From the NCBI GenBank assembly GCA_001724265.1, contig MEDY01000093.1, positions 61,984 to 81,983 on the forward strand: DNA of 20,000 bases, in the 5' to 3' direction. The position numbers and the translations under genes are program-made. Below are positions 2,265-19,416 of the stretch, one piece after another. The notes beneath the pieces are model-generated. The model saw only the letters and a list, made by a program, of their open reading frames with translations, was not told the origin of the DNA and did not search any database. Source of the DNA: Rhizaria sp. SCN 62-66. Lineage: Eukaryota. Position 1 is the stretch's first letter, and every line of letters starts with the position of its first letter.

Positions 2265-3191
2265 GCTGAGAACGCCGCCTCAGCACGGTGTGTGGACGTG
2301 CTATCCGCTGAGGAGTCTTTCCTGTTGACTGGTGTCTCATGTACGTCTGCGCTGCGACGCGCAGCTGTCGTATGTTGCTGATTGCGTCAGTATTACTGTG
2401 GCGAAGATTCTTGTCGTTGTTGTTTAGCAGTGTTGCGTGTGTGCGTGTGTGTGGATGTGTGTGTTAGTAGGGTGGCCAACACAGTGTATTTCTGCTCTCT
2501 GGTCGAGGCTCGGCACTGGCGCTGCGCCAGTCGACCCCGCACTTCGCCACCAGTCAGACTGCGCTCGCTGTGTGTGCTGACTACTGATCCCATCTCTATG
2601 TGCTTTCTTATTTTGCTTGTCCCAGCTGTGTATGTGTGTCTGACTGCGCTGCGCTGCGCTGTGTGTGCTGCGTCGTGCGGCTCCGGGTGCGGGGTCGTGC
2701 CGTTGCAAATAACACGGGACTAAGACTCGCTCCAATACAAAGATTCTTAAAATTGGTAAATCAATGCTTAGCTCGTCACACGAGTTGAACTCAATGAAAC
2801 TTCTTCATTAACTTCCGCAGTTCTTGCGGAGAGCAAGTTTATCAATGAGTGGATCAATGATAGCGAATGAAAAACGTGTTCATGGCAACCTGAGATATAA
2901 ATAAGGTGAAGCACAGTTAATATATTAAGGGTTTGTATTGCTGAGTATTCGTCGGACCGGGGGTGGGGCCGCTTGCGCACCTTTACCGGGAGTAATGCGA
3001 AAAGATAAACTATGTACGAGGGGGCTGGGCTGGAGTAGCAGTAGCAGAGACAGGGAAGAACACATGCGGTGCAAGTAGCAGCGCTTTGCAGCAGTGATAT
3101 GTTACAAGCAAGCATGACGCTAGAGTGCGCAGTACAGCGCACGTGCGTGTTGTGTGTTCAGTTGACAACATGTGCTAGGATGGACACGTAC

Positions 3192-5519
3192 TTACGCGTC
3201 GTCGGCGTAAACCTCAGCGCTGCCGGCGTCGGCGGCGGCCGCGGCGGCGTCCGCGACGGGGGCCGCGTTGACAATGGCACGGAGCACGGCCTGCTTGTTG
3301 TATGACTGCGAAGCAAGGGAGCGGATGTCCTTGCAGTGGCTGTCGATGCGGCACGTCATTAAAACAGACTCCAGACGGGAGGGCTCCTGCACCTTGCTGT
3401 CCACATCCTATTGAGAGGGAGGGGAAAAGTCGACGAGACATAATAATGGGCGGTGAGATAAAGGATCAGGGGAGAGTGTCGATGGGATGAAACGCGTAAT
3501 AATAAGATGTAAAAGTTGTTATCAGAGCCAACAGGCAAGTCAATCAGCACCATATCTAAGACTGGGGCGACAATTAAAGATCATCATTGAACAACGCAAG
3601 CGAGAGAGCCAATGGGGAGGATGTGCGTACCTAAAAGTTACCAAGGGAAACGAAGTGGGTTGCGAGAGAGTAAAGCAAGAGAGAAAAGACGAGATAGCGG
3701 GAAAAGAGAACAAAGTGAGGAAAGTTCAACAAACAGCGAACGTGGAAGCACCTCAAACAAAAAAGGATACAATAGAAAGTATTTTTTTGGTTGTTATCAG
3801 AGCCAACAGGCAAGTCAATCAGCACCATATCTAAGACTGGGGCGACAATTAAAGATCATCATTGAACAACATAGATACACAGTGTGTTCGGAAATGAAGC
3901 GTACCTAAATAGAGTCAATATGCGAAGCAAGAGCGAATGGATGCGAGACAAACAAGAGATATGAAGAGAGAGCAAGATAACGAGGTGAGAATGAAACAAG
4001 AGCGTATATGCATTTGTTGAGAGCAACAAAGCAAAAGGGGGTTTAAAAGTTATTATCAGAGCCAACAGGCAAGTCAATCAGCACCATATCTAAGACTGGG
4101 GCGACAATTAAAGATCATCATTGAACAACATAAAGATTGAAGGATCACACTACAGAAAGGAATCGCACTGTACGTCACACCATGCTCCGAGAGCACAGCA
4201 GTCAGCGGGAGAGCCAACGCAAAAGCAAAACAAATAGGTGTGTAACATACCTAAATGTGCACAAACAGAAGAATAGAATAATCGATATTGTGTGTGAGCG
4301 AATCGTGTTGCGTGATAAAAACGAAGGTATGAAAAGAGAAAAACATTGTTATCAGAGCCAACAGGCAAGTCAATCAGCACCATATCTAAGACTGGGGCGA
4401 CAATTAAAGATCATCATTGAACAACTAATCGAATTTAATCGAACGATTGGATAAATCGAGTCAATGAAACGTACCGCGTAGATAGGGTTGAGACCGAGCT
4501 TCTGACGGCGACGGTTCTCATCCTCCGCCTGCTCAAGCTTGCGAGCGGCGTCCATCTTCTGACGGTTCGCCACGGCCTGGGCCTGCTTGTAGCGGTCCTG
4601 CTCAGTGATGTACTCATCAATGCCGCCGTTGGTGCCAGCGACGAGCTGGACAAGCTTGGCGAGCAGCGCAGAGTTGTCCGTGTCGAGGCGCGAGTAGGTG
4701 CAGTCCATCACCTTACTCTCACGTAAGTTGTACAGGAAGCCGTGGATGAGGTGCGAGTTGTGCACACGGACGGGAACCTCCTCGAAAATGCTCGTCGAGT
4801 TGATGTTGAACTTCTGCATCGCCTTGGGGACGAACTTGCCCTGCGCGTAAAGCTGCATGAAGTTCTCCGTCAGCCGCACGGCGCGCAGCGAGAGGCGGCC
4901 CTTCTGGGACTTGAACGGGTCGAAGACGACGCAGACCGAGTTGGGAGTGTCAAGCTGGTAGGTGAACTGAGCCTGGATGAGGTCCAGCGTGAAAAGCGGC
5001 TCGGAGAAGTAGGTGGTGTGGAAAAGACCGACGACGTTGGCGTCCTCCTTCTGCGAGTTAAGAGCGCGGAGCATATCAACCTGGTACGAAGAGCCGTCCT
5101 CGCGCTCGTCGTCGTTGTCGAGCGGGAAGGGAAAGAAGTGGGACACCTCGAGCACGTTGCCGATGTCCATGCCAAGCAGCTGGCCGAACGCGAGCTCGTT
5201 AATGTGCTCCGAGCTGTGCTTGATGATCTTGAGCAGCACCTGCACACGGGAGAAGCGCAAAGTGGGACAAAACATGGCGGGAAAGATGAGTGAGAAGAAC
5301 GATACGGTAGAAAAGACAGTGATCTATCTCATATCAAAACGCTAGTGCTATTCCACCCAATATGACGCGCAAGCAGAAGGCGCGAAGGGAGCATGGATGG
5401 AATGCCGCATTTCGCGGGTCGAAGCAATCTTCTCAAAAAGGGTCGCGTAGAGCACGTACCGAGCCGTCAATCTGAACAACGTTTGTAGTGGGAGCCTTGG
5501 GCTCCTGAGTAGTCGACAT
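3192..5519 (-). CDS. EIF3H: Eukaryotic translation initiation factor 3 subunit H (MPN domain), ~346 aa; exons 5519-5460, 5239-4475, 3407-3192
   Basis: Manual splicing gives MSTTQEPKAPTTNVVQIDGS|VLLKIIKH...GQLLG...LEVSHFFPFP...FEEVPVRVHNSHL...NPIYA|DVDSKVQEPSRLESVL...HCKDI, matching eIF3h hallmarks (VQIDG..LKIIKH, GQLLG, EP.RL). Both introns (5459-5240, 4474-3408) start GTACGT, end in YAG after a pyrimidine tract, and are phase 0. Confidence 0.93.
3516..3594 (-). ncRNA. Box C/D snoRNA, U31/SNORD31/snR67-like; copy 4 of 4 in eIF3h intron 2
   Basis: Minus strand: UUGUU terminal stem, box C AUGAUGA (3587-3581), guide UGUCGCCCCAGU, box D' CUUA, box C' GUGCUGA, box D CUGA (3525-3522), closing AACAA. 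The guide is complementary to the conserved LSU P-loop (ACUGGGGCGG). Confidence 0.88.
3625..3635 (-). other. Putative recursive splice site 3 (zero-length exon), junction 3631/3630
   Basis: Minus strand GGTAACTTTTAG|GTACGC, with a branch-like GTAAC; the only other AG back to the snoRNA is a GAG ~120 nt upstream. Confidence 0.75.
3791..3869 (-). ncRNA. Box C/D snoRNA, U31/snR67-like; copy 3 of 4
   Basis: 79 nt identical to 3516-3594, with the same C, D', C' and D boxes and terminal stem. Confidence 0.88.
3899..3909 (-). other. Putative recursive splice site 2 (zero-length exon), junction 3905/3904
   Basis: Minus strand TATTGACTCTATTTAG|GTACGC, with a branch-like TTGAC and no AG in the ~145 nt back to the upstream snoRNA. 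Confidence 0.75.
4050..4128 (-). ncRNA. Box C/D snoRNA, U31/snR67-like; copy 2 of 4
   Basis: Identical to the other copies except at 4052 (g->a on +), which turns a terminal-stem G-C pair into G-U in the minus-strand RNA. Confidence 0.88.
4245..4255 (-). other. Putative recursive splice site 1 (zero-length exon), junction 4251/4250
   Basis: Minus strand TTTAG|GTATGT, preceded by a U/C-rich tract with no AG back to the upstream snoRNA (~95 nt). Confidence 0.75.
4346..4424 (-). ncRNA. Box C/D snoRNA, U31/snR67-like; copy 1 of 4
   Basis: 79 nt identical to 3516-3594; starts 50 nt after the exon-2 donor at 4474. Confidence 0.88.
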
Positions 5520-5768
5520 CTTTAATTAACGTGGGAACGGGACGTTCACAAATACACCTTAAATTTGCCCTCAAAAGCTGGCCCACAGCGCACCGAGTGC
5601 GTCGAGACCAGCCAGCCGGCCGACCGAAACTAAGCCGCTCGCGAGAAGTCGAGCTTTTTTCGACCCACCGCCCGACCGACTGCAAGCGGCAGAGAGACGA
5701 CCAGAGAGGTGGACCGAGGGTTTGTTGCGAAGAACGAATTTGCCTCGGAGCGAACGTAAAGACCCGCA
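5520..5768. promoter_or_regulatory. Probable compact bidirectional promoter / 5' UTR region between EIF3H and MRPL47
   Basis: Only 249 bp separate the divergent start codons (5519 on -, 5769 on +). Positional inference only; no specific motif identified. Confidence 0.5.
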
Positions 5769-6597: not shown

Positions 6598-7202
6598 GTC
6601 AGTCACTGCTTGCCAGAGAGTCGCAAGTGCGATTCAGACGACGTGGTGTGAAGACTTAGGCGAGTGACGACGCACGCGATGTATGTAGAATGTGCGTGTG
6701 TGTGGATGGGGAATGTATTTAAACCCGGCTGTGGTGTGCTGTGGCGCCCCGCTGTCTTCGCTTTCTTTGGCGAGGCAGGTTGCTCCAGTGCGCAGTCGGT
6801 CAAGGATGTGTGCTCACCAGCGTGGGTGAGAATTGTTTCATAGATCGAGTTTTAAAAAAATATACAACACTCTTTATTACCATGCTTCTCTAGTTTTAAC
6901 CACACTATCCTGTCCCCCTGTGTCGTCTGCTCCGGTGATTTATGCTGCTGTGGTCGATTGTCCTAGTGTGATAGGCGACAGCTCCAACTATAATGAGGCC
7001 TAAAGCTAAACTTCAAGACTGTCGATATCCATCACCAATCGTCATATAGAGCTAAGAAGCATTAGATACGTAAAACTCTCACTTTTTTTCTATGCAATTG
7101 AATTAAATTCTCTGTTTCGTTCATATAGCTTTCGTTCTGTGCGTGCCGCAAACGAAACGAAACACTGCAAAAACCTCTAGACTTGCGCACTGACTTGCGA
7201 GG

Positions 7203-10200
7203 ATGAGTAAGAAGCCCGGAGGCAGCTCCGGTCCTGTGGCGGCCAGCGCCAGCACGGGCGCGGGCGCCAAGGGCGCTGGCGGCAAGGGCAGCGCTACTGC
7301 GGCGGCCCCCGCGACGGGCGCGGCTGTGGGCGGCGACGACTGGAAGCCTGTCGGCAAGAAGAAGTTGAAGCTTCTCTTCGGCGGCATCGCGCGCTCGTCA
7401 AAGGCGCGCGTGATCGGCGACTGGGAAGTGCAGGAGTGGCAGCGGCTGCCGATGCTTGTGCTGCAGGAGTACTGCAAGGGCAAGAAGATCCCGCGGCCCA
7501 ACGTGACGCTGTGCCGCGTCTCACGCTACAACCCTACGTTCAAGCAGGAGAAGCAGGAGGGCGAGGAAGACGACGAAGACGAAGATGAGGACGAGTCCGA
7601 GCGCAGCGACGGCTCCGAGGACGAGTCCGCCGCCGCGCCGGCCGCCTGGGAGTACAAGCCGTACGATCCCAACGCCAACGCCGGTCCCCCGCGCCGCTAC
7701 CGTGCGCGCGTTCGTCTGCCCGACCCCAAGCGTCCTGAGAAAGACATCATCGTCGAGACGCACGAAGCCTTCTACGCGCAGCGCGAGGCTGAGGAGATGA
7801 CCGCGCTGCTGGTGCTGTACCAGCTGCAGCCGACGCTGCCGCACGAGAAAACGCTTCCGTCGCCGTTCAAAGAGCGCTGGCTCGCTATGCGCGGCGCCGC
7901 CCCTCCCGTGCGCGCGGCGTCGCAGTTCCTCACTCAAGCCGCACAGAAGCAGCACGCCGAGAACAAGCGCGTCGCGCGGCTGCGCGTGGAGCGCGCGCGC
8001 GAAGCCCGGCTGCAGCGCGCGCTCGACCGCTACGCCAGCGTCGCCATGTCCGACCCCGTGCGTCGCCACTTGGAGCAGCTCCTCCGCACGATCGCCGTCC
8101 TGCGCCGCGGCGCGCGCCCGCACGACCTCGCGCCGTCGTCCTCCGCGCTTGTCCCCGCGGGCGGCGCGGGGGACGCCGCGCGGGCGGGCGTTGTGGCGCG
8201 CGCATTGCAGGCGCGACTGGCGGCCGAGGGCTGGTCGTCTGGGGACGCGCGCGCGGCGGCGACGCACACTGTCGCTCTTGCTGCGCCAGCCACGCTCGCG
8301 CAGGCAGCGATTGACGCTGCTAAGGACGCCAACGCGGTGACTGCAAACAAGCACCGTTTCGGCGCCGGTGTGGCGCTGGGTGAGGTGAGCACTGGGCTCG
8401 AGCTGTTGCTCGAAGCGGCCGTGAACCGACTCGTGCTTGAGGTGCCCGAGTCTCGGCTGCCGCAGCGGTACGATCCGCGCGGGCAGCAGCTCGAGGTGCT
8501 GAACCACAACACCACTTCGGCCGGCACGGACACCAGCGACACGAGCAGTCTCGGCGGTGACGGCACCCCCACAGGTACCGTCGCGGGTTCCGTCGAGAAG
8601 GCGGTGAAGTTGGGCGAGCTGACTGCGGACCAGATGCGGCGACTGCGCACCCACGTTGCGACGCTGCGGCGGCACGCGGTCGGCGACGAGACTGACTTTG
8701 GTCTCGGACTCTACGATGACGACAATCCTGACGACGCCGACAAAGACGACATCAACGACGCCAACGACGATGACGACGAAGACGGAGCCGGGCCTGAGGG
8801 CAAGGGCCGTAATGGTAATGTGAGCAACCACGGTTCCCGCGGTCCTCGTGGACGCGGCGGCGGCGGTGGTAACCCGTTCGCGCGTTTTCTCCCCTCTGCA
8901 CCGGGCCGTCTCTCGGCCGCGCTGGCCGAAGAAGAGGAAGCCAAGCGCCGCGGCAGCAGCGCGTGGGCCGACATGCAGGCTGCGCGCGCGCGGCTGCCGT
9001 CGATGCAGCAGCGCGAGGGCGTGCTGGCCGCGATCCGTGCCAACCAGGTCATGGTACTTACCGGTGAGACGGGATGCGGAAAGTCGACGCAGCTGCCGCA
9101 GATGGTGCTCGACGATGCCGTTGCGCGCGGCTCCGGTGGCGACGTGCTGATCATGTGTACGCAGCCGCGCCGCATCTCGGCCGTGGGACTCGCGGAACGC
9201 GTGGCCGCCGAGCGCGCGGAGAAGTGCGGCGACGTCGTGGGTTATCAGGTACGCATGGACAACTGCACCTCGGCGCGCACGCGGCTTGTCTTTGCGACGA
9301 CCGGCGTGCTGCTGCGGCAGCTCGTGGCGATGGCGCATGACGCTGTGCCGTTGCGCGGGCTCACGCACCTGTTTATCGACGAAGTGCACGAACGCTCAGT
9401 TGAGATCGACTTTTTGCTGCTGGTGCTGAAGAAAGTGCTCCCGCGCAGGCCTGACTTGCGCGTCGTGCTCATGTCCGCTACGGTCAACGCTGAGGCGTTC
9501 CAGCGGTACTTCACCACTGAAGGCATGATGATCCCGCCCAAGGAGCTCCTCGCGCGCGCCGCCGCCGCCAACGGCAATAGCGGTGCATCGCTGACTGAGG
9601 GCGGCGGTGACGATGAGGAGGATGACGGTGGTGTTGGTGATGGTGGCAAGAAGGATAAGAAGGACAAGAAGGAGAAGAAGGACAAGGATGACAAGAAGGA
9701 TAAAAAAGACAAGAAGGACAGCAAGGAGTCCGATCAGCCTGAGTCTGCCACCGCCGCCACTGCCACGATCGCTGCCACTACAGACAGCGGTGATGGCAAG
9801 AAGGACAAGAAGGACAAGAAAGACAAAGACGATAAGAAGGACAAGAAGGATAAGAAGGACTCAGCCGCTGCCAAGCCTGCCGCGGCTTCCGGTGTCGGCT
9901 CTGCCTTTGACGCGTTTTTCGGTGACGACGATGATGACGCCGCCGCCACACCTGTTGCCATTACCCCCGCTGCCGCCGCCGCGGCCGCTGCTGCGAAGGA
10001 ATCCAAGTCGACTGCTCTTGTGCCTCCCGCCAAGCCCGCCAAGGAGTATCGTTCTAACAACTCTAGCTCTAGTAGTTCCGGCTCTAGCTCTAGTGGCTCT
10101 AGCTCGGGCTCTGGCTCTAGCTCTTGGCAGCCGTCATCTGCGTTCTTGCCCTTGCCTGCGCGCCTCACCTGCCCCATCGTTCACGTGCCCGGCCGCACCT

Positions 10201-13007
10201 TCCCCGTCACCGAGCACTACCTCCCCGAGCTTCTCGCGGCGACGGGCTACCGCCCGGACGCGCGCCACCGCCGCGCGCGCCCTGTTGAGGCGCACCAAGC
10301 CGCTGTTGCCGCGCTGCTTGCTGCCGAGAGCGCGACTGCCAAGGCCGCCAAGAAGGATGACGCAGCGCGCGCCGCGTGCCCCGGTGAAGGCGCTGTGCCC
10401 GTTGACGCCACCTCTGCCCGCTTTGGGTCAAACCGCGCACACTCTGCGATCGCAGCGATTCCCGATGACGACGATGGCGATGGTGCGAGCTACGACGCCA
10501 CGGCCACTGGCGCCGCGGGTGCGCCCGACACCGAACCCGACTCCGAGGAGGAAGCCGCCGCCGCCGCCGCCGCCGCTGGTGAGGCTGCGGAGGCTGAGAT
10601 CGTGCGGTATGACGTCGTGCGCGGCGCGTCCGGTCCGTTCTTCCGCTCCCCGCCCGCAGTCGCCGACGCCGCGGTCTCCTACCGCGACGACGCGCCGTCT
10701 GGACTGGACCTCGCGCTGGTTGAGGCCGCGGTCTGGCACGTCTGCCGCACGTTCGCTCTCCCGGCCGACGGCGCGGGCGGCGCTGTTCTGGTGTTCCTGC
10801 CCGGCGCGGGGGAGATCCAGGCCGTCGCGGACCGGCTCGACCGCGCGCTCGCCGCGGGACGTGAGGCCTCAACCGGGCTGTCGGTCCCGGCCGCGCGCGA
10901 GGTGATGGTGTTGCCGCTGCACGGTGCGATGCAGACTGCGCAGCAACGGCGCGTGTTTGACCGGCCGCCGCGCGGGGTGCGCAAGGTTGTTCTGACTACG
11001 AACATTGCCGAAACCTCCGTGACCGTGGATGATTGCGAGTATGTCATCGATACAGGCCGTGTGAAAGAAACGCAGCTCGACGCCGTGCGCCGTATGGCGA
11101 TGCTCGTCGACACGTGGTGCTCGCGCGCGAGCTGCAACCAGCGCCGTGGCCGTGCGGGACGCGTGCGCGCGGGTCACGTGTTCCGGCTGTTCACGCCACT
11201 GCGCTGGGAGGCGTTGCGCGCGCACCAGCTGCCCGAGATCCAGCGCGTGCTGCTTGATCACGTGTGTCTGCTGGTTAAGACGCTCAGGCTCGACGTGCTC
11301 GACGCCGCCGCCACCGACGCAAGCAAGATCTATACTGCCAAGGGCGGCAAGGACAAAGACAAGGACAAGGAGAAGGATAAGAGCAAGAGTAGCAGCAGCA
11401 GCAGCAGCAGCAGCAGTAATGGTGCGGTGACGGCGCGCGAGCGCGAGCAATTGCGCGCTGCATACGGCTCAGTAATGACAGTGCTGTTTGACTGCGTGGA
11501 GCCGCCGACGCCGGTGTCGGTTCAGGCGTCTTTGTCTGACCTCAAGCGGCTGGGCGCGATGACTGCGAGCGAAGCGCTGACTCCGCTTGGCGAGCTCTTG
11601 GCGCGGCTACCTGTGCAGAACACGCGCATCGGCAAGCTTCTCATCCTCGGTGCTGTGCTGCGGTGCGCGACCCCCGTTGCCGTCATCGCCGCCCTGGCCT
11701 CAGAGCGGTCGCCGTTTGTGGCGCCGATGGAGAAGCGCGCCGAGGCCAACGCGGCGCGCGCGCGCTTCGCGGTGCCTGGGTCTGATCACCTGACGCTGTG
11801 GCGCATGTTCCAGGCCTATGTGCGCGCCAAGCGGGGCGGGCGACGCGCGGCGGGCGAGTTCTGCCGTGACAACTTCCTCTCGCTGCTGACGCTGCAGACG
11901 GTGGAGAAGCTCGCGCAGCAGTACATGGACGCGTTGCGCGATGTCGGCATTGTGCCGCGGCCTCGTGGTGGCGCGCGCGGCGGGGGCATGGCGGCCGATA
12001 TCGACGCCCTCGTCGGGTCCGTCGCAGCGGTCAAGGCGATTAATCTTGACGGCGCGGTGACGGCCGCGGTCGAAGGCACGGCCAGCGAGCCCCCCGTCGC
12101 CGCTGCCGCCGTCACGCGTGCCGCAGCGAATACCGCACAGGTTCCCGCGCATGAGTTGCCGTCGTGGGACGCGAACTCGAGTGACTGGCGCGTGGTTCTA
12201 ACGACCGTGTGTGCGGGACTTTACCCCAATGTAGTCAAGATCAAGGCGCCGCCGGAGACGTACGTCAAGACAGCGCACGGCATGCTCCCGCGGCCGACGG
12301 ACCCGGCGCAGCTCAAGTTCTACCTCCGCACGTACACTAGCACCGCCGCCGGTCAGACCAGTACTGGCGACAGTGCGAGCGTGACGCCCGGTGGCGCTGG
12401 TGAGGACGACGGGTTCGAGGTCAGCGACGACGACGACGCGCGCGCAGACGCCGCCGTCGGCGACACCGGCGACGGCGCCGGCGATGATGGTGATAACAAT
12501 CCCACTACTAATGCAAACGCCGCGTCTTCGCCCGTGGTTGACGCCCGCGCCGCTGCCCGCGCTGAGCGCCGCGAGCGGCACGAGGCGGCCGTGGCGCGCG
12601 CGGCGCTTATCAAGGCGCAGGAGCTGGTTGACCGCGGCGGACGCGTGTTCGTGCACCCGCGCTCAGTGAACCACCGCACGCGGGGCTGGGAGTGCCCTTG
12701 GATGGTGTTCCTGCAGGTGATGCACACGAGCAAGGCGTATGTCATGGACTGCTCGGCGGCGAGCTCGTACGCGCTGCTGCTTTTTGGCGGCGCGCTGAGG
12801 CTGCGGCACGGCGGGCAGGTCGTCACCGTGGACGACTGGATCCGGCTGCGGCCCAACGGCGGCAAGGTCGCGGTGCTGGTGAGGCAGTTACGCGCCGAGT
12901 TAGACCGTGTTTTGGCGCATCTGATCGCGCGGCCTGGGGATACGGCGCTGCTTGAGTCGCCCGTGCTTGAGGCGATCACGTCGCTGCTTCGCGGCAACGG
13001 CTACTAA
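7203..13007 (+). CDS. DEAH/RHA-family ATP-dependent RNA helicase (DHX57/DHX29/DHX36-like), 1934 aa, apparently intronless
   Basis: Motifs GETGCGKST, TQPRRISA, TTGVLLR, DEVH, SAT, PGRTFPV, LVFLPG, PLHG, TNIAETSVT, QRRGRAGR; HA2 region (LTPLG..LARLP, SDHL); OB-fold region (AGLYPNV, VFVHP.SVN, LLLFGG); N-terminal dsRBD-like segment (PMLVLQEYCK). Confidence 0.92.
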   Translation: MSKKPGGSSGPVAASASTGAGAKGAGGKGSATAAAPATGAAVGGDDWKPVGKKKLKLLFGGIARSSKARVIGDWEVQEWQRLPMLVLQEYCKGKKIPRPNVTLCRVSRYNPTFKQEKQEGEEDDEDEDEDESERSDGSEDESAAAPAAWEYKPYDPNANAGPPRRYRARVRLPDPKRPEKDIIVETHEAFYAQREAEEMTALLVLYQLQPTLPHEKTLPSPFKERWLAMRGAAPPVRAASQFLTQAAQKQHAENKRVARLRVERAREARLQRALDRYASVAMSDPVRRHLEQLLRTIAVLRRGARPHDLAPSSSALVPAGGAGDAARAGVVARALQARLAAEGWSSGDARAAATHTVALAAPATLAQAAIDAAKDANAVTANKHRFGAGVALGEVSTGLELLLEAAVNRLVLEVPESRLPQRYDPRGQQLEVLNHNTTSAGTDTSDTSSLGGDGTPTGTVAGSVEKAVKLGELTADQMRRLRTHVATLRRHAVGDETDFGLGLYDDDNPDDADKDDINDANDDDDEDGAGPEGKGRNGNVSNHGSRGPRGRGGGGGNPFARFLPSAPGRLSAALAEEEEAKRRGSSAWADMQAARARLPSMQQREGVLAAIRANQVMVLTGETGCGKSTQLPQMVLDDAVARGSGGDVLIMCTQPRRISAVGLAERVAAERAEKCGDVVGYQVRMDNCTSARTRLVFATTGVLLRQLVAMAHDAVPLRGLTHLFIDEVHERSVEIDFLLLVLKKVLPRRPDLRVVLMSATVNAEAFQRYFTTEGMMIPPKELLARAAAANGNSGASLTEGGGDDEEDDGGVGDGGKKDKKDKKEKKDKDDKKDKKDKKDSKESDQPESATAATATIAATTDSGDGKKDKKDKKDKDDKKDKKDKKDSAAAKPAAASGVGSAFDAFFGDDDDDAAATPVAITPAAAAAAAAAKESKSTALVPPAKPAKEYRSNNSSSSSSGSSSSGSSSGSGSSSWQPSSAFLPLPARLTCPIVHVPGRTFPVTEHYLPELLAATGYRPDARHRRARPVEAHQAAVAALLAAESATAKAAKKDDAARAACPGEGAVPVDATSARFGSNRAHSAIAAIPDDDDGDGASYDATATGAAGAPDTEPDSEEEAAAAAAAAGEAAEAEIVRYDVVRGASGPFFRSPPAVADAAVSYRDDAPSGLDLALVEAAVWHVCRTFALPADGAGGAVLVFLPGAGEIQAVADRLDRALAAGREASTGLSVPAAREVMVLPLHGAMQTAQQRRVFDRPPRGVRKVVLTTNIAETSVTVDDCEYVIDTGRVKETQLDAVRRMAMLVDTWCSRASCNQRRGRAGRVRAGHVFRLFTPLRWEALRAHQLPEIQRVLLDHVCLLVKTLRLDVLDAAATDASKIYTAKGGKDKDKDKEKDKSKSSSSSSSSSSNGAVTAREREQLRAAYGSVMTVLFDCVEPPTPVSVQASLSDLKRLGAMTASEALTPLGELLARLPVQNTRIGKLLILGAVLRCATPVAVIAALASERSPFVAPMEKRAEANAARARFAVPGSDHLTLWRMFQAYVRAKRGGRRAAGEFCRDNFLSLLTLQTVEKLAQQYMDALRDVGIVPRPRGGARGGGMAADIDALVGSVAAVKAINLDGAVTAAVEGTASEPPVAAAAVTRAAANTAQVPAHELPSWDANSSDWRVVLTTVCAGLYPNVVKIKAPPETYVKTAHGMLPRPTDPAQLKFYLRTYTSTAAGQTSTGDSASVTPGGAGEDDGFEVSDDDDARADAAVGDTGDGAGDDGDNNPTTNANAASSPVVDARAAARAERRERHEAAVARAALIKAQELVDRGGRVFVHPRSVNHRTRGWECPWMVFLQVMHTSKAYVMDCSAASSYALLLFGGALRLRHGGQVVTVDDWIRLRPNGGKVAVLVRQLRAELDRVLAHLIARPGDTALLESPVLEAITSLLRGNGY
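9648..9860 (+). repeat. Two coding blocks of imperfect (KKD)n repeats, ~9648-9720 and ~9798-9860
   Basis: AAG AAG GAY units with synonymous variation; both blocks are preceded by GGTGATGG and encode G(G)KKDKKDKK...KDDKKDKKDKKDS. Confidence 0.85.
11391..11417 (+). repeat. (AGC)8 coding microsatellite encoding poly-Ser in a helicase insertion
   Basis: Direct reading: agcagc...agcagt, following a (KD)n tract. Confidence 0.85.
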
Positions 13008-13244: not shown

Positions 13245-14184
13245 TCACTGGAAGCGCGAGCGCTTGACTTGATTATTGGGGTTAAAACCGCCGCCATTGC
13301 TGTTATTGTTGTAGCCGCCGGGGCCGGGGCGCTGGTACTGTCCCTGCTGGCCCTGGCCCTGACCTTGGCCTTGATAAGGAGGCCGCTGGAAGCCACCTTG
13401 TTGCTGCTGCATCTGCTGCATCTGTTGTTGCTGTTGCTGCGCGGCGGCCGCGGCGGCGCCCGGGTGCGTCTGCAACGCGGTGGGCATCAGGCCCGCCCCC
13501 TGCGCGGCGGCGTGAAACGTTGGCACCTTCTCATCAGACCCGGGGGCAAACTGCTGCCGCAGCGCGAGTTGGTGCTGGCAGTACGCGCGCCAAGTCCGCT
13601 CGTCGAACCCGTAGTTGAAGTAGTCCGTGCGGTCCGCGCCGGGGCGGCGCCACGGCGCGTCGTCAAACTGCGCGAAGTCGAGGTCGAAGACGCTGTCGTC
13701 GGCGTCGGGCAGCCCGCTCGCGGCGGCGGCGGACTTGGCAGCGGCGGCGGAGGCGGCGGCGGTCGCGGCGGCCGCGGCGGTCGCGGCCTCCTGCTCGGCT
13801 GTCTTGAGCACTGCGGCGGGGCGGCGCTTCGAAGGCGTAATGGCGGCGGCGGAGCCGGGCGCAGGGGCTGTGAGAATGACGTTGAAATCGTCGTCGTCTT
13901 CATCTTCTTCCTCTTCGGACTCCTCCTCGGACTCGGACTCGTCCACAACGCCGCTCACGGGCGCCGCGCCGGGGGCTGCATCCAATGCTCCGGGAGCCGC
14001 AGCGTCGCTGCATAAGGGAAACAAAGACGTGGGTACGTGGTGAGATAAGGCAAAGTGAAAGCAGGCTTACGGATGTGGGGATAGGGTCTGGCAAGAAGTG
14101 GGGATAGACGTACCTGGGGGTATCGGCAGCAGCGCCACTGCTGCCATAGAGAGACGCGAACTCGTCGTTCTGCCCACGATCCAT
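13245..14184 (-). CDS. FIP1: Pre-mRNA polyadenylation factor FIP1, ~277 aa; exons 14184-14114 and 14007-13245
   Basis: Fip1 motif FDLDFAQFDDAPWRRPGADRTDYFNYGFDERTWRAYC, acidic N-terminal tract and Q/G/N-rich tail. Phase-2 intron 14113-14008 (GTACGT...TGCAG) joins the two ORFs in frame. Confidence 0.92.
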
Positions 14185-14541: not shown

Positions 14542-16211
14542 TCAGCCCTTGGTCTTGTCGTGAATCTGAAGCCCGCCCAAACGGTTCACAAGCGCCACAG
14601 CCGCCGCCGCACCCTCCGGCGCAATGCCAGTCGCAGCAGATGCAGACTCAAAGGCACCGCCAGCTTCAGCCGCGTCCGCCGCCGCAGCCGCAGCCGCTGC
14701 CACTGCCAGCGCTGCCGCCGCCGCTGCATTGGCAGAATCCGTGGCCGCGCGGATCGCCGCCGCCTCGGCCTCCTTTTCCGCCTTGCTCATCAGCAGCGGC
14801 TTACTGTCCGCTGCCGCAGCAGTCCCTGCCTCGTTACTATGGTTGGATTCAGACGGTGCGAGTGATGCGGCGGCTTGGTCGTAGCCGAAGACGAGGTCCG
14901 CGAGCGCTGCAGAGGACGCGTAATCAGCGAACGCGTCGCCGGCCCGTACACCGGCGACTTCTAAGGGGGAAACTGTAGCCAGGTCGACACCACGGAACAT
15001 ATAGCCATTGGCGCGGTCAATGGCGACCAACAACCGGTGCATAGCGGCCTTGTCGGTCACCGAGAGCGGGCGGAACGAAACCAACGAGTAGTCTATAACA
15101 TATTGAAGAGATATCGACATATACATCAAAACACAAAGAAAACAAAACATAATAAAGTAGATGGTAAGGTTTTGATGTGATTGCCACAAATATGATTGAA
15201 CATTTTCTCGGTATCACTTTTCATATCAAAAGAGCGGTACATTTGGTGTGACGTACTGTGGATGAGGTCCGCGATGGCTTTGTTAAGCCGGCGGTGGCCG
15301 CGGATGGCACGGCGCACGCGGCGTTCACGCGCAATAGCGGGATCCTCCTGTTTTTTCTGTTTATCACGAGCTCCGCCCTCGTTATCTTCATAGTCATCGT
15401 TATCGCTTTCCCCAGTGTCGCTGTCGCTGTCGCTGTCCGCGTCGCCGCTCTCCGCGTCGTCATCTTCGTCCTCGCCATCATCATCATCGTCGGCGGCGTT
15501 GTTGTCACTGGAATCGCGGTGCATGGCAGAGATATCGTTGCGCTCGCTCTTGTTCGCGTACTTACCGAGCTTCTTAGTCTTTCCGACAAGGTGAAACGGG
15601 TCGATAAGCCGCGTGAGAAAGCGTAGATCGAGCACTTCAGTGTAAAAGTCAAGCCGGAAAGGGAGCCGGCCCAGCGCGGGCGCAAGGTCGACCTTAGACA
15701 GCACGTTAACGTGGGGGAGTTCGAGGTGGCACATGACTGAGAGCGACATGAGCAGCGCTGAGATAAAGTTGGCAGGATCTGCGCAGAGGTGCACGTCAGC
15801 TAAGTGAACTGCAACGGGGCGGAATCCCCAGTCTTGCTGCATCTGCGTCACCACGGAGCGCAACGCGGCATTGTGCGTGTACAGCTCGGCCTGACCGGGG
15901 AAGTCAAACAAGATGTACTTGTCTTCGAAGGGCCGCAGGCGAGCGCGGAGGAGGTCCATGTTCTTCTCGAGCCATTCGACGCAGAAGATGAGCGCGCCGT
16001 TGGGTCCCAGTCCGTGCTCGCGCATGACGTCGTCGACGGTGATGAGCTCGGTGACCGAGAGCGCGGCTGTGTACTGAAGCGACTCGTTCGCGGGGTCTAG
16101 GTTCACGATGACGGCTTCGCGGCCAATCGCCTTCATGAACTGCTGCATCGCGTTGCAGTACGTCGACTTGCCCGCGCCGGGCGCGCCTACCACAATCTGG
16201 CAGAAAGACAT
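14542..16211 (-). CDS. GPN2: GPN-loop GTPase 2, ~501 aa; exons 16211-15257 and 15092-14542
   Basis: GAPGAGKST P-loop, VNLDPAN, GLGPNG (GPN loop), DFPGQAELYTH, LELPHVNVLSKVDL, LDFYTEVLDL. Phase-1 intron 15256-15093 (GTACGT...TATAG) yields LNKAIADLIHNYSLVSFRPL...IDRANGY, typical of GPN2. Confidence 0.9.
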
Positions 16212-17322
16212 CCGCTGAAGGGTTTAGTGTGCGTACAGTCCAGTGGGAACAGAAAAGGCTGAGCAGCGGAGGGATTCGCAAGCGCGAAACAGATAAGTTC
16301 GTGAGCACTCGGGTCTGCAAGCAAGGTCCGCACTTGGAGGGGAAGTAAATCTCTGCAGACAATATTATTACGGGGCCAAAGGTATATAACGCGTTATGTT
16401 TAAGAAATAGTATTTGATTGCTATTCAACGGCGAAGGTGGACAACACGGAAGTGAGCCGTGAAAAGCCGATCTCCTCTCTGTTTCTTTCCTCGCCGGTGG
16501 GGCCGAAAAAAGGCGGGCAGGCGCACACTCCTTGCTTGCGGTCAGCCTCAAGTGTGGATTTGGAAATATCTAGCGCCGCGATTGAGCCCTGGGGAAATTG
16601 TCCGACACTTGCAACGGTGCGGGTCTCTACCAAACTTGGCTGACGCGCCGTTTGCGGGTCGCTGGAGCATTCTGACGCGGGTGGGAGGCCCGTCGAGGTG
16701 ACGTCACAACATGATCTCAGAGCTGTGGCCTCCACGAAGCATGTGCCTTTCAGGCGGGGCGCTCGCGCGGCCGCTGCGGCACCATGGCGCGCGGATAATT
16801 AATATATGAAGTAAAGTGTCTATTTATGTGCTGTATAGTGTTGGTTGCATGCCGCCCTGATGACCATGCGCGCGGCATGGGCATGATTCTTGAACGCTCC
16901 CCGACTGACCAATGCCTTTCTCCTCGCCCATTGCATTTTGTTCCTGCGTCCTTTTCCTGTACTACATTCAGGTCGTTCAACACTCCCAAGCCTTTGCATT
17001 TTGCTGAAAGTTATTGGCTGCGCTTGCTTTGACTCCTGGTGGTCATTTCTGATACCCCTAGGCCCGAGCGGAGAATCACGCCTCCAAGCAGCCTCGTCTG
17101 CCTCGTGCCTTTCAAGCCCACCACGCCTGCGCGCGTCGCTCCTGTCTCTCCCCGGCACACAGTTCCAGCCCCACGCCAGCCACGAGAGCCCCCGTGCGGT
17201 CCCGCCTTACCCCCTGCTCTGCGTTTGCACTTCATTTTCAGCGCCCCCCTCTTCCCTCCTCTCCATCCCACTTTTTTACCCCTAAACACACACACACCAC
17301 ACCTTTCTTCTGACCGACGACG

Positions 17323-19416
17323 ATGCCGCGCGCCCGCTACGTGGCTCCCACGCCGCGCTCGGCGCTGCAGCTCACCCCCGATGAGCTCGCCCGTCTCCAC
17401 TCGGCGTTCAAAACCTCCGTGGCCAAAATCGTCTCATCAAAGCGCATGTGGGCTCAGCTGTGGACCGAGCTCGATAAGGCGGAAGAAACCGACATCCGCT
17501 CCAAGTTCGAGCTCAAGCGCGACATCCTCCAGGCCGTGGGCGCGCTTAAGGCCTCGGGGCTGCCCGCCGCGGCGCCCTCACCCGCGCCCGCCGGCGTGGG
17601 CTGCTCTGGCGCGACTCTGGACGGCGACGGACGCCTCGTCGCACTTACAGACGACATGGCGCGCCGCCGCCGCTCGTTCGCGCGCAAGACGGTCGACGCC
17701 AACGTCTGCGACTTGGACATCTACAACGACATCCCGGGCGTCGGGCTCCACTTCCTCTGGGATTTGACCCACTCGCAGCACACGGCGCGCCAGCGCATCA
17801 AGGTCCACCCGACCCACGGCCGCAATACGCAAGACTTCGAGATCGCGCGTTTGCCGCCGCTTACCGACACAGAGCCGCTAACGCTCGAGTGGGTCGAGCT
17901 CATGATCTCGGAGTTCAAGCAAGAGCGCGTGCTCGCGTACAACGACGCGTTCCAGATCGTGCGCCGCGCCGCCGCGACCTTCATCCGTGAGCCCAACGTT
18001 GTGCCCGTCAAGGTCCCGCGTGGCCAGTCCATCGCCGTCGTCGGCGATCTTCACGGACAGCTTGACGACCTGCTGATGATCTTCCGCGAGGCCGGGAAGC
18101 CGTCCGAGGGCAACCGCGTGCTCTTCAACGGTGATTTCGTCGACCGCGGTGCCTACTCGTGCGAGATCGTCCTCACGCTTTTCGCCTACCGCGCTCTGTA
18201 CCCGCATTTCCTGTTCCTTAACCGCGGCAACCACGAGTGCGCCGACATGAACTCTGTAGACGGTTTCCAGCGCGAATGCGAGGCCAAGTACGACACGGCG
18301 TTGTACACACTCTTCAACCACGTCTTCGCCGCGCTGCCCATCGCGCATCTCGTCTCGGTCGGCCAACAGCGCGTGTTTGTGGTCCACGCCGGTCTGTCGT
18401 TTAAGGACGTGACGATCGCGGACGTCAACGCGGAGAACCGGTACCAGCTCGTCTTCCCGATGAACTCGATCCTGCAAGACCTGCTCTGGTCCGACCCCTA
18501 CGACGGCATGGGACGCGTCGTCTCCAAACGCGGCGCCGGGTGCCAGTTCGGCGCCGACGTCGCCGCACGCTTCCTCGTCAAGAACAACATCCATCTCATC
18601 ATCCGCTCACACGAGTGCGAGGACAACGGCTTTGCACTGTGGTTTGAGAACAGGCTGTACACGATCTTTTCAGCCTCGGACTATTGCGGTGACTCGAACA
18701 ACTACGGCGCCTTTTGCGTGCTGTCCGACGCCCCAGCGCCGCAGATCCGCGTCTACATGGCGCGCAAGCAAGTGCTGCACTACGCCGACCGCATGCAGCG
18801 GCAGCGCCAGAGCATCATCTCACGCCTGCTCGTCCGCATCGTCGGCAAAATCGATGACATCGAACGCCGTCTGCTCGCGCTGGCCGAGAAGCGCGGCACA
18901 CCTGGCCGCGTGCCCCGCGCCGTGTGGTCGCACGTGCTGCAGGTTGAGCTCGCGATTGACGCGCCCTTCTCGCTCATCGCCACCCGACTGGGCGTGCCCG
19001 CGGCGTGCGTCGCGCGGTTCAGCACGCTGCTCGACGTGCGCCAGTGGGTCTCCCGCTTCCGCCCGCGCCTGCCCACGTCACCCGGCGGGCTGGCTGGGCT
19101 CAGCAAGGCGGATGATCTGCGTCGGCACCTCTCCGCGCTGTTGTTCGACCCCGCTTCGCCGTTCCGCGAGGGGCTCGAGGCGCTGTTCCTGCACTTCGAC
19201 GTGAACCGTGACGGGTCGATCACACCTGAGGAGTTCAAGGCGGGCGTGTCGGGCCTCATGAGTTACCTTGGCAAGCAGTATGATGAGGCCGCGATGGACG
19301 CGCTCGTGCTCGCGGTTGATGCTAACGAGGACGGTGAGATTGACTATAATGAGTTCTTCTCGGCGTTTGCGTACGGTGACGTCGATGTCGAGCGTGAGGT
19401 TCAGGTTGACACCTAA
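17323..19416 (+). CDS. PPP-family Ser/Thr phosphatase with C-terminal EF-hands (PPEF/rdgC-like), 697 aa
   Basis: PPP motifs GDLHG, GDFVDRG, LNRGNHE, HAG, DLLWSDP, RGAG, IRSHE, TIFSASDYCG, plus two canonical EF-hand loops (DVNRDGSITPEE, DANEDGEIDYNE). The start codon is less certain. Confidence 0.88.
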   Translation: MPRARYVAPTPRSALQLTPDELARLHSAFKTSVAKIVSSKRMWAQLWTELDKAEETDIRSKFELKRDILQAVGALKASGLPAAAPSPAPAGVGCSGATLDGDGRLVALTDDMARRRRSFARKTVDANVCDLDIYNDIPGVGLHFLWDLTHSQHTARQRIKVHPTHGRNTQDFEIARLPPLTDTEPLTLEWVELMISEFKQERVLAYNDAFQIVRRAAATFIREPNVVPVKVPRGQSIAVVGDLHGQLDDLLMIFREAGKPSEGNRVLFNGDFVDRGAYSCEIVLTLFAYRALYPHFLFLNRGNHECADMNSVDGFQRECEAKYDTALYTLFNHVFAALPIAHLVSVGQQRVFVVHAGLSFKDVTIADVNAENRYQLVFPMNSILQDLLWSDPYDGMGRVVSKRGAGCQFGADVAARFLVKNNIHLIIRSHECEDNGFALWFENRLYTIFSASDYCGDSNNYGAFCVLSDAPAPQIRVYMARKQVLHYADRMQRQRQSIISRLLVRIVGKIDDIERRLLALAEKRGTPGRVPRAVWSHVLQVELAIDAPFSLIATRLGVPAACVARFSTLLDVRQWVSRFRPRLPTSPGGLAGLSKADDLRRHLSALLFDPASPFREGLEALFLHFDVNRDGSITPEEFKAGVSGLMSYLGKQYDEAAMDALVLAVDANEDGEIDYNEFFSAFAYGDVDVEREVQVDT

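Follow-up and report, generated by a model that had tools for sequence, protein, structure and literature searches.

In plants and flies, clusters of small nucleolar RNAs (snoRNAs) lie within single introns, and in vertebrates recursive splice sites work through a recursive-splicing exon. In Ascomycota, "intron-intron-intron" snoRNA clusters have been described by Luo et al. (2013), in which the introns are spliced stepwise from 5' to 3' (PMC3596301). Among the 42 spliced expressed sequence tags (ESTs) that they report for such a cluster, 18 lack intron I only, 14 lack introns I and II, and 10 lack all three introns, while intron II or III was the first one lost in none of the 42 (PMC3596301). 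In the present study, we analyzed a 20,000-nt stretch of DNA from Rhizaria sp. SCN 62-66 (contig MEDY01000093.1, positions 61,984 to 81,983; hereafter "the window"). Intron 2 of its eIF3h gene holds four identical copies of one snoRNA with an AG/GT junction between each pair of neighbors, and it probably consists of four juxtaposed introns, separated by exons of zero length, that are spliced out one by one.

Other fungal introns with exons of zero length have been reported. For the snoRNA polycistrons of Candida, Donovan et al. (2016) report three kinds of splicing (classical, nested, and recursive with an exon size of zero), and the ordered splicing in C. albicans is credited there to Mitrovich et al. 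(2010) (PMC5033589). In Schizosaccharomyces pombe, Chen et al. report a zero-length exon in the 336-nt host intron of SPNCRNA.445 (snoRNA61), at a site conserved across Schizosaccharomyces (10.1101/226894). In Cryptococcus neoformans, a 375-nt intron of the coding gene BOT1 is split into 210 and 165 nt by a zero-nucleotide exon according to Burke et al. (10.1101/224170). Zero-nucleotide ratchet points are also reported from long Drosophila introns, including Ubx (10.1101/006163). Given these zero-length exons in short fungal introns, ratchet points also exist outside the very long introns of animals. An earlier note on this DNA, made from the letters alone, knew of no described example of the arrangement. 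Such a lack of precedent does not hold, as the fungal snoRNA clusters (PMC3596301, PMC5033589) and the two single-site cases (10.1101/226894, 10.1101/224170) are in print. In full-text searches of the literature, we did not find the combination of several zero-length exons in one coding-sequence intron with the same snoRNA in each unit; supplements may list more cases, possibly coding ones.

Two further results from the literature bear on how such snoRNAs are made. Standard snoRNA release consists of debranching followed by 5' and 3' exonuclease trimming, and yeast polycistronic snoRNAs are reported to be processed by RNase III (PMC10557570). For splicing-coupled assembly of box C/D small nucleolar ribonucleoproteins (snoRNPs), the reported optimum is a position about 50 nt 5' of the branch point (PMC8162545).

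Results

Internal junctions of intron 2

On the minus strand, the window has three copies of TTTAGGTAYG, all of them at the junctions between consecutive snoRNAs (Table 1), and on the plus strand it has none. This motif count agrees with the earlier note, which had placed exactly one TTTAG/GTAYG between the members of each snoRNA pair, at 4251/4250, 3905/3904, and 3631/3630. The wider pattern YAGGTAYGY has five matches in the window against 0.57 expected, and five matches were reached in 1 of 200 shuffles. Its other two matches are an ordinary exon/intron donor of the Fip1-motif gene at 14116 and a site at 9246 in the open reading frame (ORF) of the DEAH helicase. When the inter-snoRNA spacers were shuffled with dinucleotides preserved, the chance of finding AGGTAYG was 0.004, 0.0004, and 0.001 for the three spacers, and none of 20,000 shuffles gave one AGGTAYG in every one of them. 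The arrangement of the junctions is therefore confirmed to be real and non-random.

Intron-like features of each unit

A recount of the units gave the sizes reported earlier (224, 346, 274, and 223 nt, with one snoRNA each), and these sizes resemble that of intron 1 (220 nt), which is verified by RNA. The donors of the four units are GTACGT, GTATGT, GTACGC, and GTACGC, and GTACGT is also the donor of intron 1. The match between internal donor halves and other donors of the window was likewise borne out, with GTACGT at intron 1 and at the predicted introns of the Fip1-motif and GPN genes.

The motif CTCAC, which fits the branch-site pattern yUnAy, is present in all four spacers 3' of a snoRNA and in none of the four spacers 5' of a snoRNA. 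It is also present in intron 1, 51 nt before the acceptor, and in the intron of the Fip1-motif gene. The spacers 3' of the snoRNAs contain one AG in total, compared with about 9.6 expected from base composition. This single AG is a GAG in unit 3, so the earlier observation that the stretches from snoRNA to junction are free of YAG was found to be correct. Between donor and snoRNA the spacing is variable (38-125 nt), and the distance from the 3' end of the snoRNA to the candidate branch A is 54-78 nt in all four units. The latter would be near the optimum of about 50 nt reported for box C/D snoRNP assembly. If intron 2 were a single intron of 1067 nt, copy 4 alone would sit at such a distance from the branch site. 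Judged by these motifs, every unit appears to carry the full set of splice signals (donor, branch-like motif, AG-poor zone, and YAG). The spacers have no other similarity, and the retention of the AG/GT sites, CTCAC, and the AG-poor zone in them points to selection on the AG/GT sites.

The snoRNA copies

Rfam search of the 20-kb window gave four matches at the gathering threshold. All four are RF01285 (snoU31b), on the minus strand and inside intron 2, and the score of 38.4 bits exceeds the gathering score of 37 by a narrow margin. In the Rfam alignment, the guide stretch UUGUCGCCCCAGUCUUA is common to the snoRNA copies and the snoU31b family consensus. Each copy folds with a terminal stem of 5-6 bp that brings the C box TGATGA to the D box CTGA. 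From these features, the snoRNAs are predicted to be box C/D snoRNAs of the U31 type. The four copies are 100% identical over about 80 nt, and their flanks are not alignable. A weak 22-nt similarity (77%) was seen between 3673-3694 and 3925-3946, which are the pyrimidine tracts before the internal acceptors of units 3 and 2; it could be leftover homology of duplicated spacers, or just common tract composition.

Four runs were compared with the window as contigs: X9 (cDNA), X7 (a metatranscriptome from another study), X1 (DNA), and X2 (DNA or unclassified). The runs containing window sequence came from bioreactor and wastewater samples. In X1, the collapsed snoRNA contig (4349-4425) has a depth of 186.5 compared with 32-48 for the unique spacers, and in X2 the snoRNA contig has a depth of about 35-41 compared with 6-9. 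This suggests 4-6 snoRNA copies per genome, consistent with the four copies found here. Because the depth of the repeat is 4-6 times that of the unique spacers, one or two copies may be present outside intron 2. A joint from 3572 to 4052 in X2 (479 nt skipped, AT..TT ends) was rejected as splicing. We consider it to be a repeat-mapping effect, because it has non-canonical ends and each end falls in one of the identical snoRNA copies.

Intron 1, which is of the same size class as the snoRNA units, had no match in Rfam and no TGATGA or CTGA box recognizable by eye. It may contain an unrecognized small RNA, or it may be a former snoRNA intron.

The eIF3h gene and its mRNA

The gene was identified as eIF3h by its Pfam matches. 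Exon 2 matches JAB (PF01398, E 2.5e-08) and eIF3h_C (PF19445, E 4.8e-24), both above the cut-offs, and exon 3 matches the end of eIF3h_C. Our gene model (4475 to 3407) agrees with the in-frame join of exons 2 and 3 over 1067 nt that had been proposed earlier. In X9 contig 20 (614 nt, depth 19.3), 3407 is joined to 4475 with exactly 1067 nt skipped and with GT..AG ends. The predicted clean GCG/GAT junction is exact in this contig; therefore, the mRNA contains no micro-exon and no nucleotide of a ratchet site. The reading that micro-exons lie between the units was rejected on this exact junction together with the lack of YAG between snoRNA and junction. A consensus donor follows the eIF3h stop codon directly (TAA/GTACGT, 3186-3194, minus strand), and X9 contig 20 is unspliced through it to 3004.

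A partially spliced contig

Stretches without cover in X7 or X9 carry no evidential weight. The earlier note had predicted RNA joints from 4475 to 4250, 3904, and 3630. The joint of 4475 to 4250 is present in X7 record 19, and the other two joints were not seen. X7 record 19 is a contig of 151 nt (depth 2.3, 0 mismatches) in which 4133-4250 is joined to 4475-4506; the shorter arm of the joint has 35 letters. Unit 1 is missing from the contig in full (exactly 224 nt), which places exon 2 against the GTATGT of the retained unit 2. The best reading of this contig is that it is the predicted intermediate from which unit 1 has been removed. X7 record 18 covers 4002-4151 without splicing and contains the second snoRNA copy with both flanks. 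The 224-nt joint was not found in the contigs of X1 or X2, and the contigs of X1 run collinear with the window both where exon 2 passes into unit 1 and through the 4251/4250 junction.

Pieces of intron 2 from X2 (3566-3820 and 4100-4375) are identical to the window. A 909-nt contig of X2 over 4892-5700 differs from the window at 18 positions (including differences in 4892-5100 and at 5653). Most of those listed are three nucleotides or a multiple of three apart, a pattern that agrees with synonymous changes in a second strain or allele.

Table 1. Coordinates of the eIF3h exons and introns, the four units of intron 2 and their parts, and two neighboring introns. Positions count from the first letter of the 20,000-nt window; all features are on the minus strand and are described 5' to 3' along it.
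Feature	Position	Strand	Description	Evidence
eIF3h exon 1	5460..5519	-	ATG at 5519-5517; 20 codons	Exon 1/2 joint in X9 contig 24, 220 nt skipped
eIF3h intron 1	5240..5459	-	220 nt; GTACGT..CAG; CTCAC branch-like motif, A at 5291	RNA joint
eIF3h exon 2	4475..5239	-	255 codons; JAB/MPN and eIF3h_C; ends ..TAC GCG	
Compound intron 2	3408..4474	-	1067 nt	Fully absent from mRNA contig X9-20
eIF3h exon 3	3192..3407	-	71 codons and TAA (3194-3192); starts GAT GTG	X9 contig 20 continues into 3' untranslated region
Unit 1	4251..4474	-	224 nt: GTACGT, 53 nt, snoRNA, 98 nt, TTTAG	Removed alone in X7 record 19
Unit 2	3905..4250	-	346 nt: GTATGT, 125 nt, snoRNA, 148 nt, TTTAG	5' part kept in X7 record 19
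Unit 3	3631..3904	-	274 nt: GTACGC, 38 nt, snoRNA, 163 nt, TTTAG	Sequence signals
Unit 4	3408..3630	-	223 nt: GTACGC, 39 nt, snoRNA, 111 nt, AATAG	3' splice site used in mRNA
Putative zero-length exon 1	4246..4255	-	TTTAG/GTATG, junction 4251/4250	Acceptor use in X7 record 19
Putative zero-length exon 2	3900..3909	-	TTTAG/GTACG, junction 3905/3904	Sequence signals
Putative zero-length exon 3	3626..3635	-	TTTAG/GTACG, junction 3631/3630	Sequence signals
snoRNA copy 1	4349..4421	-	C box TGATGA 4416-4411; D box CTGA 4355-4352; stem GTTGTT/AACAA	Rfam RF01285; fold
snoRNA copy 2	4053..4125	-	Identical; C-to-T in 3' stem flank, pairing kept as G-U	
snoRNA copy 3	3794..3866	-	Identical	Rfam
snoRNA copy 4	3519..3591	-	Identical	Rfam
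Candidate branch site, unit 1	4294..4298	-	CTCAC, A 4295; 44 nt to 3' splice site; 54 nt past snoRNA	Motif and position
Candidate branch site, unit 2	3985..3989	-	CTCAC, A 3986; 81 nt to 3' splice site; 67 nt past snoRNA	Motif and position
Candidate branch site, unit 3	3715..3719	-	CTCAC, A 3716; 85 nt to 3' splice site; 78 nt past snoRNA	Motif and position
Candidate branch site, unit 4	3453..3457	-	CTCAC, A 3454; 46 nt to 3' splice site; 65 nt past snoRNA	Motif and position
Fip1-motif gene, predicted intron	14008-14113	-	106 nt; GTACGT..CAG; ATCTCAC 33-38 nt before acceptor	Sequence
GPN-loop GTPase gene, predicted intron	~15094-15256	-	~163 nt; GTACGT..TAG	Sequence

Relatives and neighboring genes

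The closest named match to eIF3h is from Aspergillus, with 33% identity. Two metagenomic relatives, P0002 (63% identity) and P0003 (51% identity), are prokaryote-style ORFs that continue past the same codon position into Val-Arg. Read-through into Val-Arg fits a GTNCGN donor; therefore, the intron position appears to be conserved in both. A metagenome scan with the eIF3h alignment gave 80 loci with at most 43% identity, mostly transcripts of about 1 kb, and P0002 and P0003 were not among these. In the 12 longest of these loci, 5S rRNA was the sole Rfam match. An antisense ORF of the intron (3457-3831) was compared with 1.84 billion representative proteins and had two matches, which were the ORF itself and a 251-aa repeat protein. 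The repeat protein (E 6.3e-4) was rejected as a snoRNA array of a relative, as inspection found no snoRNA-derived stretch in it. A search of viral contigs for the U31 guide pattern gave no matches.

Introns appear to be few in this genome and short, at about 100-220 nt. On the plus strand, a 700-codon ORF (17314-19416) encodes a phosphatase of the PPP family that has a PPP5-type linker and, in a PPEF-like layout, EF-hands at its C-terminus. Its metagenomic relatives have 92%, 83%, 69%, and 67% identity, and the closest named match with the same EF-hand layout is from Amorphochlora, with about 40% identity. These matches mark a poorly sampled lineage. An atlas search with the GPN GTPase added no useful taxonomic information. 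An uninterrupted ORF of 1937 codons on the plus strand (7194-13007) encodes a DEAH/HA2/OB-fold helicase. Between its DEAD and Helicase_C matches lies a BUD22-like match that is weak and falls short of the Pfam cut-off.

Discussion

Stepwise removal and its alternatives

The recursive-splicing interpretation of the earlier note is supported in part. The architecture, the splice signals, the clean mRNA joint, and one intermediate agree with it, and RNA support extends to one of the three internal junctions. Several points weigh against it. The 3905/3904 and 3631/3630 junctions are placed by sequence signals, and the AG/GT sites were read in this window. The branch sites are candidates placed by motif, separate lariats and snoRNA release by the spliceosome alone are inferences, and CTCAC taken alone is weak (P 0.26-0.32 per spacer, product 0.006). 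The fully spliced X9 contig 20 is compatible with one-step as well as stepwise removal. The order and number of the units come from the window assembly alone. The DNA contigs are short and end within the snoRNA repeats, so the three internal spacers are likewise ordered by that assembly; this uncertainty leaves the architecture unaffected. The intermediate itself is a single 151-nt contig with a depth of 2.3 from one run. Its joint has four nucleotides (GGTA) common to both sides, as is inherent in ratchet sites, and a reverse-transcriptase template switch could therefore have produced it. As no X7 contig covers unit 1 and DNA may be present in RNA libraries, a DNA haplotype without unit 1 is another possible source.

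These last points would also fit an artefactual origin of the contig. In that case, X7 record 19 would be a template-switch product or DNA from a strain without unit 1, and the AG/GT sites would be relics of whole-intron duplication with no role. The microhomology at the joint, the low depth of the one contig, and the possible DNA in X7 all fit, and strain variation is present (the X2 contig over 4892-5700). However, of the roughly 1000 positions available, the sole canonical internal joint in the RNA run falls exactly on one that was predicted, the joint is missing from X1 and X2, and relic sites should have decayed like the other spacer sequence. We consider this explanation to be very unlikely. 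Intron 2 could instead be one ordinary intron of 1067 nt that is removed in one step, with the snoRNAs freed endonucleolytically and the internal AG/GT sites used as occasional cryptic sites. RNase III-type processing of multi-snoRNA units is well known (PMC10557570), and good depth was found only for the full 1067-nt skip (19.3, compared with 2.3 for the partial product). The fully spliced contig is uninformative on the route, however, and one-step removal leaves unexplained why TTTAG/GTAYG, CTCAC, and AG-poor zones have been kept in scrambled spacers, which makes it unlikely.

It is also conceivable that the exon-2 donor alone works and chooses among four acceptors, and that the products of the internal acceptors are dead ends, perhaps with a role in regulation or nonsense-mediated decay (NMD). 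The same option was raised by Luo et al. for the fungal clusters (PMC3596301), and X7 record 19 shows just the first internal AG as acceptor for the exon-2 donor. Such a choice of acceptors gives no reason for the GTAYG immediately 3' of every internal AG, for which the chance is P <=0.004 per spacer, or for the intron-like size and signals of every unit, and we regard this option as quite improbable. Four juxtaposed introns with zero-length exons between them account for these features and are the explanation that we favor.

Proposed mechanism and origin

In the proposed mechanism, the spliceosome would remove the units singly, most likely from the 5' end. Splicing of the exon-2 donor to the first internal AG would bring exon 2 (..GCG) next to the following GTAYG and recreate a donor. 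Further rounds would use the other two internal junctions in the same way, until GCG/GAT forms between exon 2 and exon 3 with zero added nucleotides. Each snoRNA would have its own lariat and its own branch-proximal, splicing-coupled snoRNP assembly, and it would be released by the usual route of debranching and exonucleolytic trimming from the 5' and 3' ends. Any order of removal is chemically possible because every junction is AG/GT, and removal of a unit recreates AG/GT, exon/GT, or AG/exon. The single intermediate and the fungal precedent would favor the 5'-to-3' order.

The array probably originated from one AG/GT-bearing spacer that arose once, after which the module would have been multiplied by unequal recombination between snoRNA copies. 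Array growth probably occurred by such recombination between identical snoRNA blocks. The spacers would later have diverged beyond alignment, with the exception of the splice signals. Because the snoRNA blocks stayed identical, gene conversion is suggested as well as constraint, and the copies are probably kept identical by gene conversion or strong constraint. The compound intron lies in coding sequence; thus, no exons can ever have been present between the units.

A broader idea, which we offer tentatively and regard as rather doubtful, is that cassettes with zero-length exons are a general, selected way by which eukaryotes whose introns are short and intron-defined multiply a snoRNA in a coding gene. 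Under this idea, the segment formed by snoRNA, branch site, and AG/GT would be a module that could grow or shrink in number by unequal recombination between the identical snoRNA blocks with the mRNA untouched, and each copy would need its own splicing event for snoRNP assembly. The locus would then be the first example with a coding gene and the same snoRNA throughout, and it would provide a natural test of why there is a rule of one C/D snoRNA per intron. The layout supports the idea that a box C/D snoRNA needs its own intron at a set distance from the branch site, and it suggests how snoRNA dosage can rise with the host mRNA unchanged. For genome annotation, long snoRNA-bearing introns of protists and fungi should be checked for internal AG/GT, and reads that are partly spliced there should not be called retained introns or micro-exons.

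Comparison with known systems

Intronic clusters in plants and flies and polycistrons in yeast have several snoRNAs per intron or transcript, as this locus does. In those systems, the snoRNAs are described as being released endonucleolytically, with splice sites lacking between the copies. The ratchet points of Drosophila resemble the junctions proposed here in that AG/GT provides a new 5' splice site once the upstream segment has been spliced out. However, the recursive introns of Drosophila and vertebrates are tens of kilobases long, the presumed purpose of the recursion is the accurate removal of this length, and they are not known to have a snoRNA in each segment.

The two fungal introns with one such site are closer in size. 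As in the snoRNA61 intron of S. pombe, a short snoRNA-host intron is split by an internal 3' splice site/5' splice site. The S. pombe host is non-coding with one ratchet point, and no repeated snoRNA array is described in the passages dealing with this intron. Like the BOT1 intron of C. neoformans, intron 2 of eIF3h is a short intron in a protein-coding host and has sub-introns of ordinary size. BOT1 has one pivot point compared with three in eIF3h, and its description by Burke et al. mentions no snoRNA in the part dealing with this intron.

The Ascomycota clusters II and III, as they are described, are similar to our reading of eIF3h intron 2 in having one box C/D snoRNA per sub-intron, a zero-length exon, stepwise recreation of the donor, and intermediates that lack intron I only. 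Orthology to the fungal clusters I-III was not supported: all four copies here are of the U31 type, and no named fungus is close. The fungal clusters as reported carry different snoRNAs (snR57/55/61, snR41/70, and others), whereas four copies of one U31-type snoRNA are found here. The reported fungal hosts are non-coding polycistrons whose zero-length exons arose by loss of non-coding exons, and the exon size in them can be zero, 1 nt, or negative. In contrast, the compound intron of eIF3h interrupts a coding frame; therefore, zero length (or a stop-free multiple of three) is required. The exons between units must be exactly empty in a coding host, and here the trick occurs three times in a row with four snoRNA copies. 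The locus thus carries a splicing trick of non-coding yeast snoRNA hosts into a coding region, that of an essential translation factor. What is new is the protein-coding host, the array of four units with the same snoRNA, and a lineage without a close named relative.

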